The notes below the pieces were generated by a model, which saw only the letters and a program-made list of their open reading frames with translations, was not told the origin of the DNA and ran no database searches. A DNA stretch of 64,000 nucleotides from a phage: the sequence record PX880101.1; one strand, given 5' to 3'. The position numbers were made by a program, and so were the translations under genes. Of the stretch, positions 16,995-61,157 are shown piece after piece (the first letter of the stretch is position 1; each line of letters begins with the position of its first letter).

Positions 16995-17024
16995 CAGGGG
17001 CTTTAAAAGGCCCCTTTCTTTTTG
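16995..17024 (+). terminator. intrinsic terminator ending the plus-strand small-gene array
   Basis: Hairpin aggggc-tttaaaa-gcccct followed by ttctttttg. Confidence 0.6.
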
Positions 17025-17599
17025 TCTGTATTTCTCCTACCACAAACGGCCCAGCCTGGCAAGTGGAATAATTGACTAGCCATCAATCCCACACACTGTA
17101 CAAATATACATGGAAAATAACTATTGCATAATTTTTCATTGTGTGGTAGCAAGTCCATTTTTACCCGTTTTCTCTCTCAAAATTGCACGTAATGCCGCTA
17201 TTGCACAAATTTTAACCTGATGCACATCTCCAATATCTTGTCAACAACTAAAAATCTTTATAAGTCATACACTTACACAGCATCGAAAGCGTGTTCTACG
17301 CGAAAAATCGAGTATAACTATAGCCGCCAGATCTCAGAATTCACGTACGCACGCCATTCTATAGCCTGCAAAGTATTTATTCCAACCACAGAATAACGGA
17401 ATAGTCAATACCTGCATAAAATAATTATTCGTGTAAACTGCATAACATAAATCAGCTCAGGTGTCAACATTTTTCGTAAACAGTCCGAAATTATCACGAT
17501 GAGTTATCATAAACAGAGAAATCTTTAGTCGTCTAATGTTTACTGTACATTACTATACTGACTGGAATCATTAGATGACTAAGAGAAAGATAAGAAATA

Positions 17600-18020
17600 A
17601 TTAATAATGTAATTATTTTACCTGTAACAATAAGGCAACTATGCAAACGAATGGCATGGCGCGACGGAGTCGCGACATAATATAAAAGCAGTAACCATCA
17701 CCCCCGTGATAGTTTGTCTGCAATCTATTAATCAGATCATAGTTGCCTTGTATTCAGTTAATCATGACATAATAAGCAAGGCAACTATAGATCTGCTAAT
17801 AGTTGCCCTGCTTTTATATTATGTCATAGAAACACCCGAAGGGGTGACCAAAGGTCACCTGGCATGGCCAGTGAAAGATTATTAACTTGTTAATTGTTAA
17901 CTTGCTAATTGTTTTCATGCAAACGAATGTCATGGCTTATCCTATCTGTGTAAACAGTTAAGGTGTAAACTATCCAGGCGTAAACAGTCTATGCGGGAAC
18001 AATCTATACGTGAACAGTGA
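17600..18020. repeat. cluster of direct and inverted repeats
   Basis: AGGCAACTAT x4 in both orientations; catgcaaacgaatg(g/t)catggc x2; palindrome ggtgacc-aaa-ggtcacc; five copies of a G(T/C)GTAAACAG-like iteron between 17945 and 18015. Confidence 0.6.
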
Positions 18021-18629
18021 AACATGAAATAATAACAATCGTTATTGTGTCGAAAGTGTATAAGGTGTCATAGTATGTCAGACAAGTTTTTCTCCTCTTT
18101 GTCAAGTGCTGCATGAAAATTTACAAACTGGTATGGTAGCATTTTTGCGGCCCTGTTTACATTCAGTTGTGTATGTATAACCCTTGTTGTGTGGGCGTTT
18201 AGACGTCTGGACGGTTGGAAGTCTACAGGTCAATATCTAATCTATTGGCTGCTAACTATATCCCACACAAATAGTAAGAAATACAATTGTTATGTGAGTA
18301 AACGGTAACTCATGTTATCAATCCCTGTATGGATCGCCAGTGGTGCGCATAATGGGTATTATGTTAAATTGCCCGTAATGATAACTATTCTCACAATGAT
18401 AGGTATTCTCATTCACTCCCACAAGATAGGTTGCAAATGTTGTGCCACTGTGTGAACGGCCTCACCTATTAATTTGCCTCACTGCCTCGATATTTGAGAA
18501 TTGTTATAAGAATGAGAAGTATTCCCATTTCGTCCGCCTGGCAGCACTCCAGTCGCTACCGCTCATGACAGGGCAGAACTGGGTCCATTCAGATATTTCT
18601 GGCTGACTCTTCAGGTCTGTGTGGGAAAA

Positions 18630-18810
18630 GCCAACCTCTCCGGCGGGGCAGGGGTAGGTCAATTAAAAAATTTACGTGGTGTATGAAGAGCCCTTCAGGT
18701 AAGGCATGTATTATGGGATGAAACACCCTTCAGGCAATGATATTTGTGGGTGGGATATTTGCTGGAAAGCCAGATATGACGGGACTCCTGGCGGGGCAGG
18801 GGTAGTACAG
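18630..18810. repeat. direct repeats (ggcggggcaggggtag x2; cccttcagg x2)
   Basis: Two ~17 bp units about 148 bp apart, plus a second repeated unit between them. Confidence 0.55.
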
Positions 18811-19500
18811 ACAGGGGAAATATGGTGGATGTAGTTGGGTGGATTGATCAGGCAGGTAGAGTATGGAATATGTTACAAGTATGTTAAATATGGAGGATGA
18901 ATATCTGTAGGATTTGTGTGTAAAATCAAAGACTTAAGTGGTGTTGTGGTATTTTCTATAAATAATTCAAGTTTAATAGGTAATATTTGTCTCTATCCGC
19001 TTTGTGTGGTAAACAAATTCAGATGGTGTTGGTTTACAAGTGTATACATAATATACAAATTAAAGATACAAGAAACCCCCCTCCCCCTTCGGCTACCATT
19101 CACCTTTTCCTCTGACTGGTACTTAAACACTTATTCAGACTCTTCAGGTTATCACCCATATATCATATGGCAGTGACTGGTGTCCTCCGGCCCCTCTTTC
19201 GTCACCCGTCCGCTTCGCCATGCTAATGCCATAGCCAACGGTTCGGTTGTTCACCCTGTTCACTCAGGTGTATCTCCATACCCCTTCAAACCGAAGAGAA
19301 CAGAAAACCCGAATTACTCGGTAAAAGAAAAGAGAAGAACTTAATTTTATCAGGATAGGCAAGAATGTCAAGGCATGACTGCTCACTAAACAAGCAAACA
19401 GTCATGTGTGGAAGGTAAGTGATTGTGGTGGTAGGAAATTTAGTTGAAAGATGTGTTATAGGTGCGCTTCCAGCACTTTAGCCGGGCAGCTAATTGTGTG

Positions 19501-37738: not shown

Positions 37739-38827
37739 TTAAAACTCCCAAATTTCTTCTTCAGCGTCGTTAACAGTTGTGTTGACGCGGTAGTCAGTGT
37801 TCGACATTTCTTGGTTCGCCGTCTGTTGTAATGAAGGTTTCATCCACACCTGCATGAACGGTAGCGGGTCCTTTGTTGGCGGCACAAAGTCTTTGTCGAT
37901 GTCGTAGTAATCATAAATCGGTGAGCAGTTATAGTCAACCCACTCTTTAAGCAACGGTGAGTTAAGACCTATAATCGCTCTTCCTTCGCTGAAAATATAG
38001 TCACTCCAACCGTACTCTTTGGTTCGTACTTCATCAAAAATCTCTTTTAACTCCCCCTTTATCTCAAGGAAGCTTTTCTCCCATGCGGGATCATTAAGCA
38101 AGATATCAATGATGGCAAAATCACCTTTCGAATGTAGCATTTCGTCAAGCATGATTTTTTGAACAAGCTGCGCCACCTGAACAAAGATACCCTGTTCAGC
38201 TACTGCGAAAGTGCATGCAAAACTTGCAATAAACTCAATACTTTCCAGAGCTAAAAGCGCAAAAAGCGCTCTAAGAATGCATTTCCGCACAATATCTTCT
38301 TCAACACTAGAAGGATCCAAGCGGTATTTTGCACCAATAACCTCAAGCTCTTGCATGTATTTGACAATAACGCCGGATCTGCTCAGAACGTTTTGGTTTT
38401 CCTGAATCTCTTCTATAATCTCACGGGCATTGGGGAGGCATTGTCTAACAATCTCTGAGTAAGTTAGTGCGTGAAGAACTTCAATCTCTGACTGTTTCAT
38501 CAATAGAGTGAAAAGCTCACTATTAGTGATGAATGGTGAAAAGAGGCAGATGATCGATCTTGCCGCAACGCTATCAGCCTCCCATTGCCACATCAAGGTC
38601 TGCACCATCACGTCATAAGTTGACTTTGAGCATGTTACAAAATCTGAAATAGATTGCGACAAATCCACTTCATCCTCTGCCCAATCTTGCTCTTTTTGTT
38701 TTTTGTATAGTTCAAACAGTTGTGGATATTTTTTGTTGATAGAGTCGTACATACCCATTTGCTGTCCCAGAAACAGCGGATAGTCACCAGTTTTATGAGC
38801 GGTGTTCTCAGCATTAAATACAGCCAT
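37739..38827 (-). CDS. nrdB: ribonucleotide reductase class Ia small subunit
   Basis: Ferritin-like R2 pattern with conserved E/H residues; start set at ATG after agaggtag RBS rather than the upstream M that would overlap nrdA. Confidence 0.85.
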   Translation of the reverse strand: MAVFNAENTAHKTGDYPLFLGQQMGMYDSINKKYPQLFELYKKQKEQDWAEDEVDLSQSISDFVTCSKSTYDVMVQTLMWQWEADSVAARSIICLFSPFITNSELFTLLMKQSEIEVLHALTYSEIVRQCLPNAREIIEEIQENQNVLSRSGVIVKYMQELEVIGAKYRLDPSSVEEDIVRKCILRALFALLALESIEFIASFACTFAVAEQGIFVQVAQLVQKIMLDEMLHSKGDFAIIDILLNDPAWEKSFLEIKGELKEIFDEVRTKEYGWSDYIFSEGRAIIGLNSPLLKEWVDYNCSPIYDYYDIDKDFVPPTKDPLPFMQVWMKPSLQQTANQEMSNTDYRVNTTVNDAEEEIWEF

Positions 38828-38865: not shown

Positions 38866-41181
38866 TTATAGTGCACAGCTTTCGCAATACGGATCTTCAA
38901 CTGAACTATCTGCAATCAAAGGATAGTTCTTTCTGGTTTCATCTTCAGCCTGTTTCTTGGCATGAAGTTCCTCTGCCAAGGAGTCACCAGCACCAACCCT
39001 AGAGTTTAAATAATACCATGTCTTCATCCCGAATTTAGTGGCACGGATAAGGTACCCTAACTGCTCCTTCATTGAAATTTTACCATCTTTCAACTTGGTG
39101 TAGTCTATGTATAAATCCGCGCTGATTGCCTGACCTGTGAATTTTTGAATCACGGCATACATATCGATCATGTCGTTAGTATCAACGTCCCAAGCCGAGG
39201 TGTAATACTCTTTCAACTCATCATAGTCAGGAACGATAAACAGCACCTGCCCTTGTGGCGACTTTTTAAAGATAATGTGCTCACGGACAGGATAAACCCC
39301 GTTAGTGGTGTTTGTTGCCAGCGAAGAGCTTTCATTAGGCATATATGCTTCAAGAACGCTATTACGTAGCCCACCATTCTCAATGATTTCTTTACGTAAC
39401 CCTTCCCAATCCTGTTTAAGAGAAGGATCTTTCACCACGCTATCGACCTCTTTGTTATAGGTGTCGATTGGTAACCAACCTTCTGGATATTTTGTTTTAT
39501 GCATCCACTCGCAGACACCACGCTCTTTTGCCAACCGTAAACTTGCCTTATGCAAGCTGTAGCTGTGAAGTTCTGCAAGATCGTGAACGAGCTGTTTACT
39601 TTCAGGAGACCCGTAAGTAACCTTGTGGCTGGCAATAAAATGTGCAACATTGGTAAGGCCAACCCCGATGGATCTGCGTTTTTTAACTGTGCTTTCCATA
39701 TTTTCATACGGATATGTCATGATTTCCATAACATTGTCAATCATAAGCACCGTATAGTATGCAACATCCTCATACTCCTCTGGAGTAACCCTCCCAGCTA
39801 CAAGAGATGACAGGAAGCACAATGCAACCTCTCCATCATCAGCATCGTACTTGAAGATATTACGCATATCTGAATAGCCTTTTGTCGGGAGGGCTATTTC
39901 TGCACACAGGTTGCTTGAATAGATCACATCTTTAAAAGGTGTATGTCTATTCATCTCATCTGTCCAGTATACGTACAGCCTTCCCACCTCAGTGCGCTGC
40001 GTGATCAGTTCAACAGCAAGATCTCTAGCTCGGATCCATGTTTTAGGAATACTGTCATCTTTAGCAATACGATCAACCTCTGCATCAAACTCCTCCATAG
40101 ACATGGTGAAGATACCCTCATGCAGTTGAGGCGCGTGCTTATAAGAAACAAGCATCCAATCTAAATTCTTAGCCACACGGTTGATAAACGACCTATTAAT
40201 ACCGATGGAGTAGTCCATGGTGTTGATTCTTTTTGAAGCAACAGTCATAGGGTTTCTCAAACGGATTAGCTCATCAATCTGCGGGTCCAGTGCAAGGAAT
40301 GATACTGTTGCAGAACCACCACGTGATTGTTGTCTGTTCTCCTTAACCCCAGCATCAATACCTCGATAATATGGAATCTTACCCATATGTTTAATAGTGT
40401 TACCACGAACACCATCGCCTGCAGATCTTGAGGATAAGTAGTAGCCGATACCTGCTTGGTTAACCGTCATTGTGTACGCAACTTCACGTGCCACACCAAT
40501 AGATTTTGCTGTATCGTCAGCTTTTATTACACAACAAGATGCATACCCTGTCTTACCTGTGCGCAGCCCGTTTAAGTACGGTGTTGGGGCATTGATCTTT
40601 AAGTCGGACAGATAAGTGTATAATTTTACAACATCGTTGATACGACGTTCTTTCGGCATATTCTTCATGACAGCCATTGCTATCCCCATAAACATCATCT
40701 GGGGAGATTCAAACAAGGTGTCTTTAAGAGTATCCTTGATCCCGTATTTGTCGCGAAACTGTTTAAGGACTGCATAGCCATAACCGAGATCTTTACTGTG
40801 GTCAATAACAGCGTCTAAAGTGTTTAGCTCGGTAAAGCTATAACCCATATCCTCCCAATAACCTTTCTCAACCATGTCATTGTAAAATGATGGTAAGGAA
40901 GGGATCTTTGTAAACCCTCCAAAAGCCTCTTTATAGATCTGACCAATAAGAACACGACCAGCCATACGGGAATGTGCTTCGTCTTTACGGCTAACACAAG
41001 AGTCTATAATAGCTTGGTTAACTTCTTTGGTTGTACATCCATCATACAACCGCTTGTAGGCATCCAGTGCAATATGTGACCAATTGCCGTTACCATCGTC
41101 ACCGAAAATAGCTGCCTTATTTAAACGTTCTGGATCGAATGCCACTTCACATCCGTTGCTTTTAATTACCTTGGTGATCAA
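38866..41181 (-). CDS. nrdA: ribonucleotide reductase class Ia large subunit
   Basis: N-terminal ATP-cone, active-site NLCAEIALPT motif, 771 aa. Confidence 0.9.
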   Translation of the reverse strand: MITKVIKSNGCEVAFDPERLNKAAIFGDDGNGNWSHIALDAYKRLYDGCTTKEVNQAIIDSCVSRKDEAHSRMAGRVLIGQIYKEAFGGFTKIPSLPSFYNDMVEKGYWEDMGYSFTELNTLDAVIDHSKDLGYGYAVLKQFRDKYGIKDTLKDTLFESPQMMFMGIAMAVMKNMPKERRINDVVKLYTYLSDLKINAPTPYLNGLRTGKTGYASCCVIKADDTAKSIGVAREVAYTMTVNQAGIGYYLSSRSAGDGVRGNTIKHMGKIPYYRGIDAGVKENRQQSRGGSATVSFLALDPQIDELIRLRNPMTVASKRINTMDYSIGINRSFINRVAKNLDWMLVSYKHAPQLHEGIFTMSMEEFDAEVDRIAKDDSIPKTWIRARDLAVELITQRTEVGRLYVYWTDEMNRHTPFKDVIYSSNLCAEIALPTKGYSDMRNIFKYDADDGEVALCFLSSLVAGRVTPEEYEDVAYYTVLMIDNVMEIMTYPYENMESTVKKRRSIGVGLTNVAHFIASHKVTYGSPESKQLVHDLAELHSYSLHKASLRLAKERGVCEWMHKTKYPEGWLPIDTYNKEVDSVVKDPSLKQDWEGLRKEIIENGGLRNSVLEAYMPNESSSLATNTTNGVYPVREHIIFKKSPQGQVLFIVPDYDELKEYYTSAWDVDTNDMIDMYAVIQKFTGQAISADLYIDYTKLKDGKISMKEQLGYLIRATKFGMKTWYYLNSRVGAGDSLAEELHAKKQAEDETRKNYPLIADSSVEDPYCESCAL

Positions 41182-41486
41182 TTTGCTTCCTCCACTTCAC
41201 TAACGTATTTATCAAGGCAGGTATCAGTATCTTGCTGGATAAAAGTATCCTCTTCTACAGAGATATTTATAATTTTACCTGTATACTCGTCATAATAGAC
41301 ATCATCATACATTTTAATATCGTTTGTCAGGCCATTGAACCAAAGCCAACCAACATACTCTGCCCGACTTGCAAAACCAAGATCCTTCCACTTGGAGTTA
41401 TGACTCATCTTCACCACCTTAGCTTTCAATACCGAATAATTTTTCCAGGCGATGCAGATCTTCAAAATTGAAAGGTTCATCAACAA
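41178..41486 (-). CDS. hypothetical protein
   Basis: ORF; 4 nt overlap with nrdA. Confidence 0.4.
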   Translation of the reverse strand: MLMNLSILKICIAWKNYSVLKAKVVKMSHNSKWKDLGFASRAEYVGWLWFNGLTNDIKMYDDVYYDEYTGKIINISVEEDTFIQQDTDTCLDKYVSEVEEAN

Positions 41487-41919
41487 TATGAATATCTTCA
41501 GCCTTTTCAGATTGTTTTGTATACTTTCTTACATTAACACGATCCTCTACAGGGATATCATACGGGAGATCTTGAACAAGCATTGCCTCACCAGGTGCTT
41601 TATCTACATCTAAAATATCTACACCGTTATACATTTGTGGGTATCTAAAGTCTGCACGCATGACACCAGCAAATACATCTGCCTTTCGATAATGTGTTGG
41701 CTTATTTTTGCATCGAACGTTTTTTCCACGAAGAACATCAATACTTTTTAAATCAAACCCTACGGCAAAGAGTGCAGCTCGGAGACCGTTTCGTGTGCGA
41801 ACGTTAAACCCGGGGACGGTAGATAGAAAATCTAAAGTAACTGAAATAAATGTCTTTTTAGGAATCATAACATTACTCATATCTGTCTCCATTTCTGGCT
41901 CACCAACAAAGTGAGCCAT
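41419..41919 (-). CDS. hypothetical protein
   Basis: ORF. Confidence 0.45.
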   Translation of the reverse strand: MAHFVGEPEMETDMSNVMIPKKTFISVTLDFLSTVPGFNVRTRNGLRAALFAVGFDLKSIDVLRGKNVRCKNKPTHYRKADVFAGVMRADFRYPQMYNGVDILDVDKAPGEAMLVQDLPYDIPVEDRVNVRKYTKQSEKAEDIHIVDEPFNFEDLHRLEKLFGIES

Positions 41920-41978
41920 TATTATAGATTATCTAATACTATTAGTCAACACAAAAGTTACCTATCGCTGTGATAGGA

Positions 41979-42962
41979 TTAACCTTTCACGAAGTGGTTA
42001 TTAAGCAGTTGTCTGTGCTGAACCCACCCACAAAAGTTGGCAGACCAGAATTTACCATCACGGTCTTGATGGGTTACACCTTCCTGCCAAGTACTGATGT
42101 CTTGTGTGATTTCACATGAAGACAGGTAGTAGTTTAAACGTTCCATTGCGTTATCGTGATCCATAGGTGTTGCCTGGTGCTCGTAAGGGCTTGCATGAAT
42201 ACGATCCCCACCAATCAATTTTTTAGCCACACTATCTGCCTTTTCAAACGTGCTGTCAATATTTCGATAAGATACTTGTGCACAGCAACTAGCACTGATA
42301 GACAGAGCTTCTTTAGTATCGAGAATGCAGAGCTTTCCTTCTGTGTCACGTACAGCGTAGTTAAACTCTCCGTCCAAATAAACGTGCTCTACATATGGGG
42401 TGTGCCATTGACCCGGTTTAAGGATTTCAGGAGTGCTATTCTCAAGAGCCTCCCACATACAATTAGCTAACATCTGAATCGTAGGATCCGCATCGTGCCA
42501 GCAACGGAGGTGGAAAAAATTATTCCACTCGGTGCTTGTTACAACTGTTTTCATGCGCTGGAACGGCTCCACTAAGCGGTTACATACTTGCTTATGGTAA
42601 CCAGCAAGGGCGAACTTCTCTGCATGCCAAGCGGCGTTTTTTGCAGCTTCTTTCCAAAACTCTTCAGGAGTTAGCTCCATGTCAGTGTACTCTACACGGA
42701 TCTTTTGATCGTGTTCCCCACCATCTTCCATTCCTCGCTTATTTACACCGAAGCGAACTGGCATTGCCGGATTCTCCACAATCTGTTGCAGCATCTTGCC
42801 GACAGGTACTGCACGGGAAGACATGGCGTTTCGGCTGAACACTCGGTGCGTCATAAGCTCTGAGTGAATAATTCGAGGGTACTCTAGTTCAAAAGTGGTG
42901 ATACGCTTACCTTTCTCGGAAATGCTGTCAGCAATAATCTTTGCAGTGCACAGTTTTAGCAT
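41979..42962 (-). CDS. putative flavin-dependent thymidylate synthase (ThyX-like, divergent)
   Basis: THRVFSRNAMSS fits the ThyX RHR-x7-S signature with T in place of the first R; longer than typical ThyX. Confidence 0.4.
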   Translation of the reverse strand: MLKLCTAKIIADSISEKGKRITTFELEYPRIIHSELMTHRVFSRNAMSSRAVPVGKMLQQIVENPAMPVRFGVNKRGMEDGGEHDQKIRVEYTDMELTPEEFWKEAAKNAAWHAEKFALAGYHKQVCNRLVEPFQRMKTVVTSTEWNNFFHLRCWHDADPTIQMLANCMWEALENSTPEILKPGQWHTPYVEHVYLDGEFNYAVRDTEGKLCILDTKEALSISASCCAQVSYRNIDSTFEKADSVAKKLIGGDRIHASPYEHQATPMDHDNAMERLNYYLSSCEITQDISTWQEGVTHQDRDGKFWSANFCGWVQHRQLLNNHFVKG

Positions 42963-43162
42963 TATTTAGCTCTCCTTGTTTTAATTTTGGAAATTTCGTC
43001 TGGGTTTATGTTGGCCTTAAATGCAAGGTATCTGTTGAACATGTCAGAGCACATATCTTGGGTGATCCTAGAGGCATACACTAGCTTACCTCCTAGATCA
43101 TACACCTCTAGCCAGTCACCGTATCTGACTACAGGATCGCCACCTTTAGAACATCTGCCCAT
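42962..43162 (-). CDS. hypothetical small protein
   Basis: ORF. Confidence 0.4.
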   Translation of the reverse strand: MGRCSKGGDPVVRYGDWLEVYDLGGKLVYASRITQDMCSDMFNRYLAFKANINPDEISKIKTRRAK

Positions 43163-43163
43163 T

Positions 43164-43757
43164 TCAAATACCTTCTAAAAATTTTCCTATTTTATACCAG
43201 CTATTAGCGGTATAGTCAACACTGACCTTTAACTCCTCGAATTGCTCATAAGGCGTATCTTTTAGGATTTTAATAACTTCAGGTCGTGAAGCGAATTGGT
43301 TCAGGTATTCATGCCTGTCGTCAATTATAACATCTACAGCCACATTCCCTTTGAAATGTGTGGCGTAGAAGCCGTGGCCCTGGGTGTGATCGTCCAGATC
43401 CATAAAATCACTGGTCCAACGCTTTAAGAACCTTGATTTAGATGCAAGGTGACCTTTCTTGCATACCGAGATAAATGCAAGCTTGTGACCACGAGCCACC
43501 AAATCTTTCATAACCTCAATAGCCCCCTCTTCAGGCTTAAGGAAGTCGTAGAGGAACGGATCACTCCAGAAATCAAAAGGTCCTATGATGTTTTCTTTGG
43601 GACGATCAGGCCAATACTTTGACAGATCGTAATACATTAGCCCATTAGAAGGTTTAGCCACTGTCTTACTGGCTGGACCATACAAACGCTCCAACCACTC
43701 CCACCATGCTGTTCCTGAATCTACCAGTGTCAGATCTACATCAATTCCGATTAACAT
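43164..43757 (-). CDS. HAD-superfamily 5'(3')-deoxyribonucleotidase-like protein
   Basis: N-terminal DxDxT motif (IGIDVDLTLVD). Confidence 0.55.
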   Translation of the reverse strand: MLIGIDVDLTLVDSGTAWWEWLERLYGPASKTVAKPSNGLMYYDLSKYWPDRPKENIIGPFDFWSDPFLYDFLKPEEGAIEVMKDLVARGHKLAFISVCKKGHLASKSRFLKRWTSDFMDLDDHTQGHGFYATHFKGNVAVDVIIDDRHEYLNQFASRPEVIKILKDTPYEQFEELKVSVDYTANSWYKIGKFLEGI

Positions 43758-44368
43758 TCTTCTTGGGCCTCTTTAGCATCAATATACTTGCACACAATCT
43801 CCGATGCACACTCCCAAGGTGCACCTTCAGGGTTTACAACATCAAACTCAACCCCTTTTATTCCGTTCTTTTCCAGACTTAGATAGGTTCTGGAATCATT
43901 TCCCCAGTCATATCCTACACGGTGAATACGGAACAACAACAGATCTCCACCTGTGCTGTATGCGTACTCGCTAAGGCATGCCAGCTCCTCTTTGAATCCC
44001 CCATCGGAGTAAACAATAACCCCTTTACCTTCAGGGAAATCTTTCTTCAAAGATGCGACTGCGGCTTTACCGAAAGCATCTTCACCAAAGATAGGTTTAA
44101 TCAGATTTTCACTACAATGGATCATCCATTCTCGCGGAGAAACATGCTTGCCGTCTATCATTAAGAAAGGGCAAGGCTCTTCTTTGTAGTGGCGGTCATA
44201 AAGTGCATTCCAGAGTTGAGGAGTTACACCAGCTGCCTTAATTGCCACGCTGAAGAGCATCTCCTTAACCTCACGGTGGTGTGAGTTAGGAATAGCTTCC
44301 AACAAGAGATCTGCAATGTGATCCTTACCACTGCTGGGTGGGGCGTTAAGAACAATAATATCCATCAA
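43751..44368 (-). CDS. P-loop nucleotide (dNMP) kinase-like protein
   Basis: Walker A NAPPSSGKD at N-terminus; located within the nucleotide metabolism cluster. Confidence 0.5.
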   Translation of the reverse strand: MMDIIVLNAPPSSGKDHIADLLLEAIPNSHHREVKEMLFSVAIKAAGVTPQLWNALYDRHYKEEPCPFLMIDGKHVSPREWMIHCSENLIKPIFGEDAFGKAAVASLKKDFPEGKGVIVYSDGGFKEELACLSEYAYSTGGDLLLFRIHRVGYDWGNDSRTYLSLEKNGIKGVEFDVVNPEGAPWECASEIVCKYIDAKEAQEEC

Positions 44369-44568
44369 AAACCTCCGTGGTATTCTTCAACTGCATCAAT
44401 AATACTTTTACACTTATCTACCAGCTCGTTAGCCACTACAGCATCGTCTTCCCAAACAGCTTCCTCAATCTGATCAAGCAATGATCGCATCTTACCCATC
44501 ATTTCTGGGATAAAGTTTTCTGAAAAGCTGTCTGGAATTGTTAACTTTAGTGTCATTGCGGTCTCCAA
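44365..44568 (-). CDS. hypothetical small protein
   Basis: ORF. Confidence 0.4.
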   Translation of the reverse strand: METAMTLKLTIPDSFSENFIPEMMGKMRSLLDQIEEAVWEDDAVVANELVDKCKSIIDAVEEYHGGF

Positions 44569-60344: not shown

Positions 60345-60419
60345 GCCCTGTTAGCTTAGTGGATAAAGCAGCGGCCTTCTAAGCCGTTGACACTGGTTCG
60401 AGTCCAGTACGGGGTGCCA
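60345..60419 (+). tRNA. tRNA-Arg (anticodon TCT)
   Basis: Hand-folded cloverleaf: acceptor GCCCTGT/ACGGGGT with G-U pairs, loop CTTCTAA, T-loop TTCGAGT, encoded CCA. Confidence 0.75.
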
Positions 60420-60423
60420 AATT

Positions 60424-60510
60424 GGGGAGTTATCCCGTAGAGGTAGCGGTGTAGACTGTAAATCTATTGTCATTGCGACTCGGGTGGTTCGACTCCACCA
60501 CTCCCCACCA
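60424..60510 (+). tRNA. tRNA-Tyr (anticodon GTA)
   Basis: Acceptor GGGGAGT/ACTCCCC, loop CTGTAAA, long variable arm, T-loop TTCGACT, CCA. Confidence 0.8.
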
Positions 60511-60624
60511 AATTTATATTTTTAGATGCATAAATAATACAGATAATGGCATTGATATTTATCGTCGTTTATACTAGTCACTAACTGCTCGAAAATCAGT
60601 GTCATTATCAGTATAATTTATAAA

Positions 60625-60715
60625 GGAGGGTAGGGAGCAATGGTGCTCAAGCGGTCTTGAAAACCGTCCCGTTGGGTATGACTCGATGATGGTTCGATTC
60701 CATTACTCTCCGCCA
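60625..60715 (+). tRNA. tRNA-Ser (anticodon TGA)
   Basis: Acceptor GGAGGGT/ACTCTCC, loop CTTGAAA, long variable arm, T-loop TTCGATT, CCA. Confidence 0.7.
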
Positions 60716-60813
60716 CATTGTTGACCTTGTAATTAAGCGAAAGCCGGAAGCAGAACCGGATTATCAAATGTTACAGTCGTCATCGCCGACTAGCAACATG
60801 GTCAACATACTGA

Positions 60814-60912
60814 GCTAGGTAAGCCCTTTGGCAAGGGCGAGGATTTTTAATCCTGAAAATAGACGAGGTAGTAGTTGAATACATAGGTGGTTCGATTCCA
60901 TCACCTAGCACC
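60814..60912 (+). tRNA. aberrant tRNA-like element (possible Lys-TTT loop) with ~29 nt insertion before the T-arm
   Basis: Perfect acceptor GCTAGGT/ACCTAGC, D-arm GCCC-TTTGGCAA-GGGC, T-loop GGTTCGATTCC, but oversized variable region and imperfect anticodon stem; no encoded CCA. Confidence 0.35.
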
Positions 60913-60917
60913 TTTTT

Positions 60918-60993
60918 GCTGATGTAGCACAATCGGTAGTGCAATTGATTTGTAATCAATAGGTTGTAGGTTCAAGTCCTGCCATCAGCACCA
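60918..60993 (+). tRNA. tRNA-Thr (anticodon TGT)
   Basis: Acceptor GCTGATG/CATCAGC, D-arm GCAC/GTGC, loop TTTGTAA, T-loop TTCAAGT, CCA. Confidence 0.8.
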
Positions 60994-60994
60994 A

Positions 60995-61069
60995 GGCCCT
61001 GTAGCTGGAAGGTTCAAGCAAGCGACTCATAATCGCCAGACGGTGGTTCAATTCCACCCAGGGCCACCA
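60995..61069 (+). tRNA. tRNA-Met (anticodon CAT; could be Ile-lysidine type)
   Basis: Acceptor GGCCCTG/CAGGGCC, loop CTCATAA, T-loop TTCAATT, CCA; no initiator-type features. Confidence 0.7.
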
Positions 61070-61080
61070 AATAATAAATA

Positions 61081-61157
61081 CTCCGCGTAGCTCAGCTTGG
61101 TAGAGCGCCTGATTTGGGATCAGGAGGTCGAGTGTTCGAATCACTCCGTGGAGACCA
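61081..61157 (+). tRNA. tRNA-Pro (anticodon TGG)
   Basis: Acceptor CTCCGCG/CGTGGAG (C1:G72), D-arm GCTC/GAGC, loop TTTGGGA, T-loop TTCGAAT, CCA. Confidence 0.75.

Follow-up and report, generated by a model that had tools for sequence, protein, structure and literature searches.

The gene at 41979-42962 on the minus strand of phage sequence record PX880101.1 encodes a 327-amino-acid (aa) protein with the fold of ThyX, the flavin-dependent thymidylate synthase, but with the elements of that fold in a different order along the chain. The protein is a homologue of rV5 gp106, and the whole stretch of DNA analyzed, referred to below as the window, is 64,000 nucleotides (nt) long. It is probable that the gene specifies a functional flavin-dependent thymidylate synthase belonging to a very large, rearranged class derived from ThyX, and that it boosts the supply of deoxythymidine triphosphate (dTTP) to the phage. 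The enzyme would convert deoxyuridine monophosphate (dUMP), methylene-tetrahydrofolate and NAD(P)H to thymidine monophosphate (dTMP) and tetrahydrofolate. The gain in dTTP would come during phage replication, alongside the phage ribonucleotide reductase (RNR), deoxynucleoside monophosphate (dNMP) kinase and nucleotidase. The initial annotation of the gene had offered two readings, a divergent thymidylate synthase or an enzyme of DNA hypermodification. The first is favored by the profile matches, the structural matches to ThyX, the residues of the dUMP site and a setting among genes of deoxynucleoside triphosphate (dNTP) supply, and the second is disfavored on grounds given below.

The open reading frame (ORF) is intact, with an ATG at 42962 and a stop codon at 41979-41981. 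Its start overlaps the stop of a small upstream ORF (TAATG), and a strong Shine-Dalgarno sequence, AAGGAG, can be read 9 nt 5' of the ATG (42972-42977, minus strand). Escherichia phage EmilHeitz (Bas49) and other rV5-like Vequintavirus genomes match the region at 99.8% identity. The identical protein is present on 243 public contigs, where it is labeled "FAD-dependent thymidylate synthase / ThyX", and the rV5 genome paper names rV5 gp106 merely as a thymidylate synthase (PMC3606486). As a label, thymidylate synthase is already known in the databases; the architecture is apparently undescribed, as no description of it was found.

The ThyX fold and the order of its elements

Assignment to ThyX is based on both profile and structural comparisons. 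A Thy1-family profile search, which the initial annotation had proposed as a check, returned a match. The Pfam model PF02511 (Thy1) scored 38.1 bits against a gathering threshold of 24.8, with only profile positions 60-191 matched, on aa 23-179, and cellular members show the same partial match as the phage protein. PHROG 85, annotated as "thymidylate synthase", matched at 380 bits (5e-113). The best structural matches of the 327-aa protein were all ThyX. No ThyA family (Thymidylat_synt) was found among the Pfam and NCBIfam hits, and no ThyA structure was found among the fold matches. A search of PDB sequences with the single 327-aa sequence gave no match. A family profile built from 60 sequences reached ThyX in the PDB sequences at an E-value of only about 0.5, yet it showed pieces of ThyX out of order.

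The order of the pieces was analyzed by comparing two profiles with hhalign. The canonical profile contained T. maritima ThyX, whose sequence and numbering were confirmed against 1kq4, and ten phage ThyX proteins. The family profile contained 130 diverse members, which are representatives of clusters at 50% identity. The pieces shown by the 60-sequence profile in the PDB search were three non-collinear parts of T. maritima ThyX. In the hhalign comparison the core, residues 8-196, aligns to T. maritima residues 46-211 with a probability of 96.8%. A second part, residues 216-267, aligns independently to T. maritima residues 15-64 (probability 93.3%, E-value 2.8e-7), and its alignment score of 43.5 compares with 11.0 +/- 1.9 in 100 column shuffles. 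Residues 15-64 of the T. maritima enzyme comprise alpha1 (AARVS(F/Y), corresponding to CA(Q/R)VSY here), alpha2 and the H-x-(S/T)-P-F-E-H loop (HASP(F/Y)EH here). At the N-terminus of the phage protein a beta2-like strand is joined straight to beta3; the unit of alpha1, alpha2 and H53 is gone from that place and is found after the core. The collinear order of beta1/2, alpha1, alpha2, H53 loop, beta3, ThyX motif and alpha4 to alpha8 is therefore not the order of this protein. On the minus strand of the window, the ThyX core lies at 42423-42905 (residues 20-180, equivalent to T. maritima residues ~59-211) and includes beta3, alpha3, the ThyX motif and alpha4 to alpha7. The relocated N-terminal segment lies at 42165-42317 (residues 216-266) and includes alpha1 as CAQVSY with S231, alpha2 and HASPYEH.

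A variable linker separates the relocated unit from a terminal motif, FWSANFCGWVQHRQL, at 42006-42050 on the minus strand (residues 305-319). Its consensus over residues 305-317 is FWS(G/A)N(F/L)xGWxQxR. Within this motif N309, Q315 and R317 are each conserved in at least 90% of the 130 representatives, and R317 is invariant in the distant phage members Karma, FoX4 and R7L. The motif weakly resembles the beta4-alpha6 region of ThyX (T. maritima residues 159-170, FWTxN...N), and some canonical ThyX proteins have WTGSL. Its hhalign score was 20.3 as compared with 9.4 +/- 2.2 for shuffles, a score reached by none of 300 shuffles. Aligned alone, the motif gave a probability of only 14%; the joint alignment of the C-terminal module to ThyX gave 90%.

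The initial annotation had put the protein at about 100 residues over typical ThyX. This estimate holds, as 327 aa compared with 216-275 aa in 11 canonical sequences leaves about 90-110 extra residues. Features that the annotation had missed, namely the non-collinear rearrangement of ThyX and the conserved C-terminal module, account both for the added residues and for the weakness of the profile match.

Most economically, ThyX would have been duplicated in tandem or fused, after which each copy lost what the other kept. The order within the C-terminal module, together with the N-terminal junction of beta2 and beta3, would be expected of two copies that had undergone complementary deletions, and this is the basis on which a duplication is suggested. 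The scenario rests on short motifs, and a comparison of the N-terminal and C-terminal halves by hhalign for an internal repeat was negative. Alternatively, with no difference in function, the alpha1-alpha2-H53 unit may have been circularly permuted or transposed within one ThyX domain, with WSxN..Q.R as a new addition. This route is possible but somewhat doubtful for several reasons. First, the N-terminal beta2-like strand is joined directly to beta3. Secondly, the C-terminal module follows the canonical order of alpha1, alpha2, H53 loop, a beta3-like QATP and a motif resembling beta4-alpha6. Lastly, there are the 90% joint alignment and the tail, which beats 300 of 300 shuffles. In either case, residues 1-185 make up the ThyX core (beta2-like strand, beta3, ThyX motif, and alpha4 to alpha7 with R129, N148 and R153) without the alpha1-alpha2-H53 loop, and S231, H256, S258 and E261 are found in residues 216-266, followed by WSxN..Q.R at 305-317. 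If a duplication did occur, the C-terminal module would supply elements that are partly contributed by the neighboring subunit in canonical ThyX.

Conservation of the active site

Active-site residues of T. maritima ThyX were mapped to the 327-aa protein by profile alignment, and the counts below refer to the same 130 representatives. The dUMP-site residues S88, R90, R147 and R174 correspond to S48 (128/130), R50 (129/130), R129 (129/130) and R153 (130/130). The N-terminal elements of the flavin site, S30 and H53-x-T55-P-F-E58-H59, are also present, sited after the core, as S231 and H256-A-S258-P-Y-E261-H262. These are conserved in 125-130 of the representatives (S231 and H256 in 130, S258 in 125, E261 in 126 and H262 in 129). 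In addition, H79, R80, N85 and N169 map to H39 (129/130), R40 (109/130), N45 (121/130) and N148 (129/130), and Q75 maps to E35. The substrate- and flavin-site residues of alpha5 and beta4-alpha6, which are R129, N148 and R153, are encoded at 42504-42578 on the minus strand (residues 129-153). About 45 positions are conserved in at least 90% of the representatives, and every mapped substrate-site residue is among them.

The variant ThyX motif, ELMTHRVFSRNAMSSRA, is located at 42810-42860 on the minus strand (residues 35-51) and was identified by alignment and conservation. Residues 38-49, THRVFSRNAMSS, are encoded at nt 42816-42851. It had been noted in the initial annotation that T replaces the first R of RHR-x7-S, and the sequence bears this out: T38-H39-R40-x7-S48 has the spacing of R78-H79-R80-x7-S88 in T. 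maritima ThyX. At the position of R/K78, T is present in 124 of the 130 representatives, K in 3 and R in 2, and T38-H39-R40 is invariant in 60 relatives. Thus, T38 is a fixed trait and not an oddity of sequencing or of one strain. All 11 canonical sequences begin the motif with R or K, and KHQ and KHK variants exist among them; of the pattern (R/K)-H-R-x7-S, the phage protein lacks the basic first residue and keeps the H, the spacing and the S. The lid tyrosine Y91 and E86 are also absent. E86, which is conserved to 90% or more among the canonical sequences, is A46 in this protein and A, S or T across the family, while Y91, invariant in the canonical set, is A51, with A in 129 of 130. Two further differences, R165 to T144 and N163 to T142, were rejected as meaningful losses because both positions vary among canonical phage ThyX proteins.

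The first motif arginine forms hydrogen bonds with the isoalloxazine and with dUMP, and the tyrosine is a lid over C5 of dUMP and N5 of the flavin (PMC6514825). Since R/K78 and the lid Tyr91 are replaced, the rearranged family must treat the flavin and dUMP contacts differently, and the way in which it handles flavin and substrate probably departs in detail from that of canonical ThyX. The conserved basic residues R30, K124 and R317 have no canonical counterpart and may be candidates for compensation.

Inteins in relatives provide a further view of these positions. Among the 150 best cluster representatives, 16 are 520-680 aa long and carry intein splicing, HNH or LAGLIDADG domains (P0126, P0131, P0137, P0146, P0150, P0155, P0161, P0180, P0200, P0209, P0214, P0215, P0217, P0230, P0249 and P0266). 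The intein junctions are canonical, with C after the first junction, HN or GN before the second, and C or S after it. Six insertion sites were identified, which in the numbering of the 327-aa protein are after H33, R40, F42, S48, position 155 and H256, and all are in active-site motifs. The R40 site is directly behind T-H-R, the position-155 site is two residues beyond R153, and the H256 site, seen in five relatives, is inside the relocated HASPxEH motif. The window gene at 41979-42962 contains no intein. Inteins are typically found in the conserved catalytic motifs of enzymes that are essential for replication. Their presence in these motifs therefore supports catalytic competence and supports the relocated segment as part of the active site, where it would be positioned in the folded protein. 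As an observation in its own right, the rearranged ThyX family ranks with RNR and DNA polymerase as an intein hot spot.

Several points weigh against a functional thymidylate synthase. First, the curated thyX equivalog model TIGR02170 scored 39.5 bits, below its cut-off of 87.9. Secondly, the first basic residue of the motif, E86 and the lid Tyr91, all three of them invariant or almost invariant in canonical ThyX, are replaced. Third, the relocated segment is the lowest-confidence region in both AlphaFold2 (AF2) models. Lastly, no assay of any member of the rearranged class was found in the literature searched. The first two of these points would suit a ThyX relic that has lost its catalytic activity and acts in structure or regulation, and the gene is not strictly needed, since E. 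coli has ThyA. A relic is nevertheless very improbable given the roughly 45 positions conserved at 90% or more, all mapped substrate-site residues included, and the inteins at six active-site positions, as expected of conserved catalytic sites. In addition, the family forms 5,050 clusters at 50% identity, occurs in more than 1,000 phage records and, in its roseophage members, is reported to be under purifying selection (PMC11934525).

Genome context and distribution

The putative thymidylate synthase gene is part of a block of genes on the same strand, in the order dNMP kinase-like gene, NT5C-like nucleotidase, 66-aa ORF, ThyX-like gene, two small ORFs, NrdA, NrdB, glutaredoxin, NrdD and NrdG. 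The dNMP kinase-like P-loop protein (205 aa; 43751-44368, minus strand) matches PHROG 139, "deoxynucleoside monophosphate kinase", at 4.6e-45. The HAD-type, NT5C-like 5'(3')-deoxyribonucleotidase (197 aa; 43164-43757, minus strand) matches Pfam NT5C at 27.1 bits with a cut-off of 24.8. The class I RNR is encoded at 38866-41181 (NrdA) and 37739-38827 (NrdB), both on the minus strand. Directly downstream of the ThyX-like gene is a function-unknown protein of 166 aa (41419-41919, minus strand) that belongs to PHROG 5557 and has no Pfam hit. It was also observed that the nucleotidase and kinase genes (43164-44368) overlap each other just upstream of the ThyX-like gene.

Neighbors were counted at 80 diverse viral loci with relatives of the ThyX-like gene. 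RNR genes were the commonest, with NrdA at 49 loci and NrdB at 45, and an NT5C-like nucleotidase was present at 33 and a dNMP kinase at 18. In the window, the presence of a nucleotidase beside a kinase suggests active reshaping of the dNMP pool, for example the making of dUMP or the recycling of host dNMPs. A PHROG 5557 homologue was the immediate downstream neighbor at 30 of the 80 loci. This protein could be a functional partner, or its position could be mere conserved synteny among related myoviruses. In the phiCbK-like phage Karma a dNMP kinase is directly upstream of the ThyX-like homologue, and in the N4-like phage R7L a dCMP deaminase is three genes upstream. In the analysis of R7L, dcd and thyX were co-distributed in the Rhodovirinae, and thyX had a dN/dS of 0.18 (PMC11934525).

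The rearranged class, with its 5,050 clusters, was present in 1,036 phage records, as compared with 2,142 for canonical ThyX. In EmilHeitz, the rearranged ThyX is the sole annotated thymidylate synthase. The complete curated annotation of that genome contains no ThyA, dihydrofolate reductase (DHFR), dCMP deaminase, dUTPase or hypermodification genes, and its only methyltransferases are ordinary adenine and cytosine methyltransferases. Separately, 19 records bear the name "Campylobacter phage", with C. jejuni as host, and share 90% identity or more with window positions 41000-44500; these look like mislabeling or contamination rather than true Campylobacter phages.

When prokaryotes were scanned with one genome for each species, 109 loci with a rearranged ThyX were found. 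High-GC metagenome-assembled loci were affected by antisense ORF-calling artefacts, and only gene clusters confirmed by Pfam were relied on. About 25 of the 109 loci are from Eremiobacterota/Vulcanimicrobiota, complete chromosomes of 3-5.5 Mb among them, and about 15 are from Verrucomicrobiota/Kiritimatiellia (L117-L167 for the Eremiobacterota and L155-L177 for the Verrucomicrobiota/Kiritimatiellia). In Eremiobacterota the gene has a conserved arrangement, gltX-glmU-MFS-msrA followed by the rearranged thyX, with no phage genes at the locus. From its lineage-wide synteny on the chromosome, it looks like a candidate housekeeping thymidylate synthase. These proteins are 283-300 aa long, the minimal form being 283 aa, and have MTHR...SSRA, the relocated H(A/W)SPxEH and a GNxxGWxQ(Y/F)RK tail. 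Architecture and motifs are shared by the Verrucomicrobiota/Kiritimatiellia members. In the cellular homologues the terminal motif follows HxSPxEH after about 10 residues.

Context and distribution also bear on the second reading of the initial annotation, in which ThyX-type chemistry would make a non-canonical pyrimidine nucleotide for phage DNA, for example a 5-hydroxymethyl or other C5-modified dUMP or dCMP. Three residues that cover or touch the reacting C5 and N5 atoms (PMC6514825), namely the lid Tyr91, E86 and the first basic residue, are replaced in the family, and the site opened in this way could admit water or another nucleophile. ThyA-type folds have, in addition, been repurposed repeatedly in phages (PMC8989533; PMC13326640). 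However, repurposing in phages is known for homologues of ThyA and not for ThyX. The BASEL study found the Vequintavirinae, including the 99.8%-identical Bas49, to be "exceptionally susceptible" to restriction-modification (RM) systems, without effective protection (PMC8594841); bulk thymidine hypermodification is therefore hard to reconcile with these phages. No typical hypermodification kinase, glycosyltransferase or aminoacyl-transferase genes are annotated in the EmilHeitz genome, the same architecture is syntenic among housekeeping genes in Eremiobacterota chromosomes, and the gene is co-distributed with dCMP deaminase in N4-like roseophages (PMC11934525). The signs of a hypermodification pathway would be a non-canonical base in virion DNA or restriction resistance, together with linked kinase or transferase genes; neither restriction resistance nor such genes were found, which is an indirect argument on DNA composition. 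Synthesis of a modified pyrimidine is thus improbable for these reasons, and a role in DNA hypermodification is unlikely. The phage ThyA-homologue modifiers, which are the dUMP/dCMP hydroxymethylases and the 5-hydroxy-dCMP synthases of RB69/DLP3, are likewise phage relatives of thymidylate synthase that act on pyrimidine mononucleotides (PMC8989533, PMC13326640). They differ in having the unrelated ThyA fold, downstream modification genes and restriction-resistant DNA, whereas no such genes are annotated in EmilHeitz and the Vequintavirinae are RM-sensitive.

The protein might instead methylate another substrate (UMP, CMP/dCMP or a precursor of the nucleoside-antibiotic type), as does the ThyX-fold UMP/dUMP methylase PolB. 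A structural match to PolB is the sole hint of this, and there is little likelihood of it, as the equivalents of S88, R90, R147 and R174 that bind dUMP are near-invariant, the family is widespread in lytic phages of many hosts, and the context is one of deoxynucleotide supply (RNR, dNMP kinase, deoxynucleotidase) and not a biosynthetic cluster. By sequence, PolB (PDB 4p5a), a C5-methylase that takes part in making polyoxin, matches T. maritima ThyX at 3.7e-34, and it is collinear with ThyX. It is encoded in an antibiotic gene cluster, whereas the rearranged ThyX of phages is encoded in a dNTP-supply block.

Other features of the window and of EmilHeitz were also recorded. A cluster of seven tRNAs is present at 60345-61157 on the plus strand, in which ARAGORN gives a four-base anticodon for 60814-60912 (99 nt). 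By cluster order, this tRNA apparently matches a 97-nt gene annotated as tRNA-Lys in EmilHeitz. A window tRNA with the anticodon CAT apparently corresponds to tRNA-Ile (ATA) in EmilHeitz, and the tRNA-Ser at 60625-60715 is not in the EmilHeitz annotation. At about 17000-19400, around the point where the gene blocks change from the plus to the minus strand, no ORF exceeds about 60 aa, the matching 2.4 kb in EmilHeitz is unannotated, and no Rfam family was found at the gathering threshold. This stretch may serve in regulation or as an origin. In EmilHeitz, nrdD (L001, 2541-5248) and the DNA polymerase gene (L013, 20613-24232) are each two joined pieces with homing-endonuclease genes between them. 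Mobile elements target genes of replication and nucleotide metabolism throughout the phage group of EmilHeitz.

Comparison with canonical ThyX and implications

Canonical ThyX (T. maritima TM0449, PBCV-1 A674R and M. tuberculosis ThyX; PF02511, TIGR02170) is collinear, whereas the rearranged class has the alpha1-alpha2-H53 unit after the core. The canonical proteins are ~216-275 aa long, as compared with 283-340 aa in the rearranged class. The class also has the extra terminal motif with N309, Q315 and R317, and it replaces R/K78 with T, E86 with A or S, and Y91 with A. Within the literature searched, which covered few subscription journals, nothing was found that describes the non-collinear architecture, the T-H-R/A51 signature or the terminal motif, or that reports the gene on Eremiobacterota chromosomes, so that an earlier description is possible. 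Literature on circular permutation of ThyX, or on the class in rV5, ICP1, N4-like phages and Eremiobacterota, yielded only routine "thymidylate synthase" annotations.

Canonical ThyX is a homotetramer with composite active sites. We tentatively suggest, as a possibility we do not hold to be the likelier outcome, that the rearranged proteins are a third architectural class of thymidylate synthase. Such a "one-and-a-half" ThyX would have elements of the neighboring subunit fused in cis and would dispense with R78, E86 and Tyr91. More than 1,000 sequenced phages would make use of it, and in Eremiobacterota and some Verrucomicrobiota it would be the housekeeping enzyme. If this is true, its oligomeric state (perhaps a dimer), its handling of flavin and substrate and its inhibitor profile would differ from those of canonical ThyX.

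Flavin-mediated methyl transfer is studied with ThyX as a model, and ThyX is also a target for antibacterial drugs. Accounts of its mechanism take R78, E86, Y91 and an N-terminal H53 loop as fixed features. Which of the features are truly needed is shown by a clade of about 5,000 clusters in which the substrate-binding arginines and serine are kept, the H53 loop is moved to the other end of the chain and three "invariant" residues are lost. The class would also be a natural experiment in the rearrangement of a fold by duplication and complementary loss. Since the curated equivalog models miss it, metabolic reconstructions of phages and of Eremiobacterota may mis-score dTMP synthesis. For rV5-like phages, a thyX-like gene is not to be taken as a sign of modified DNA.

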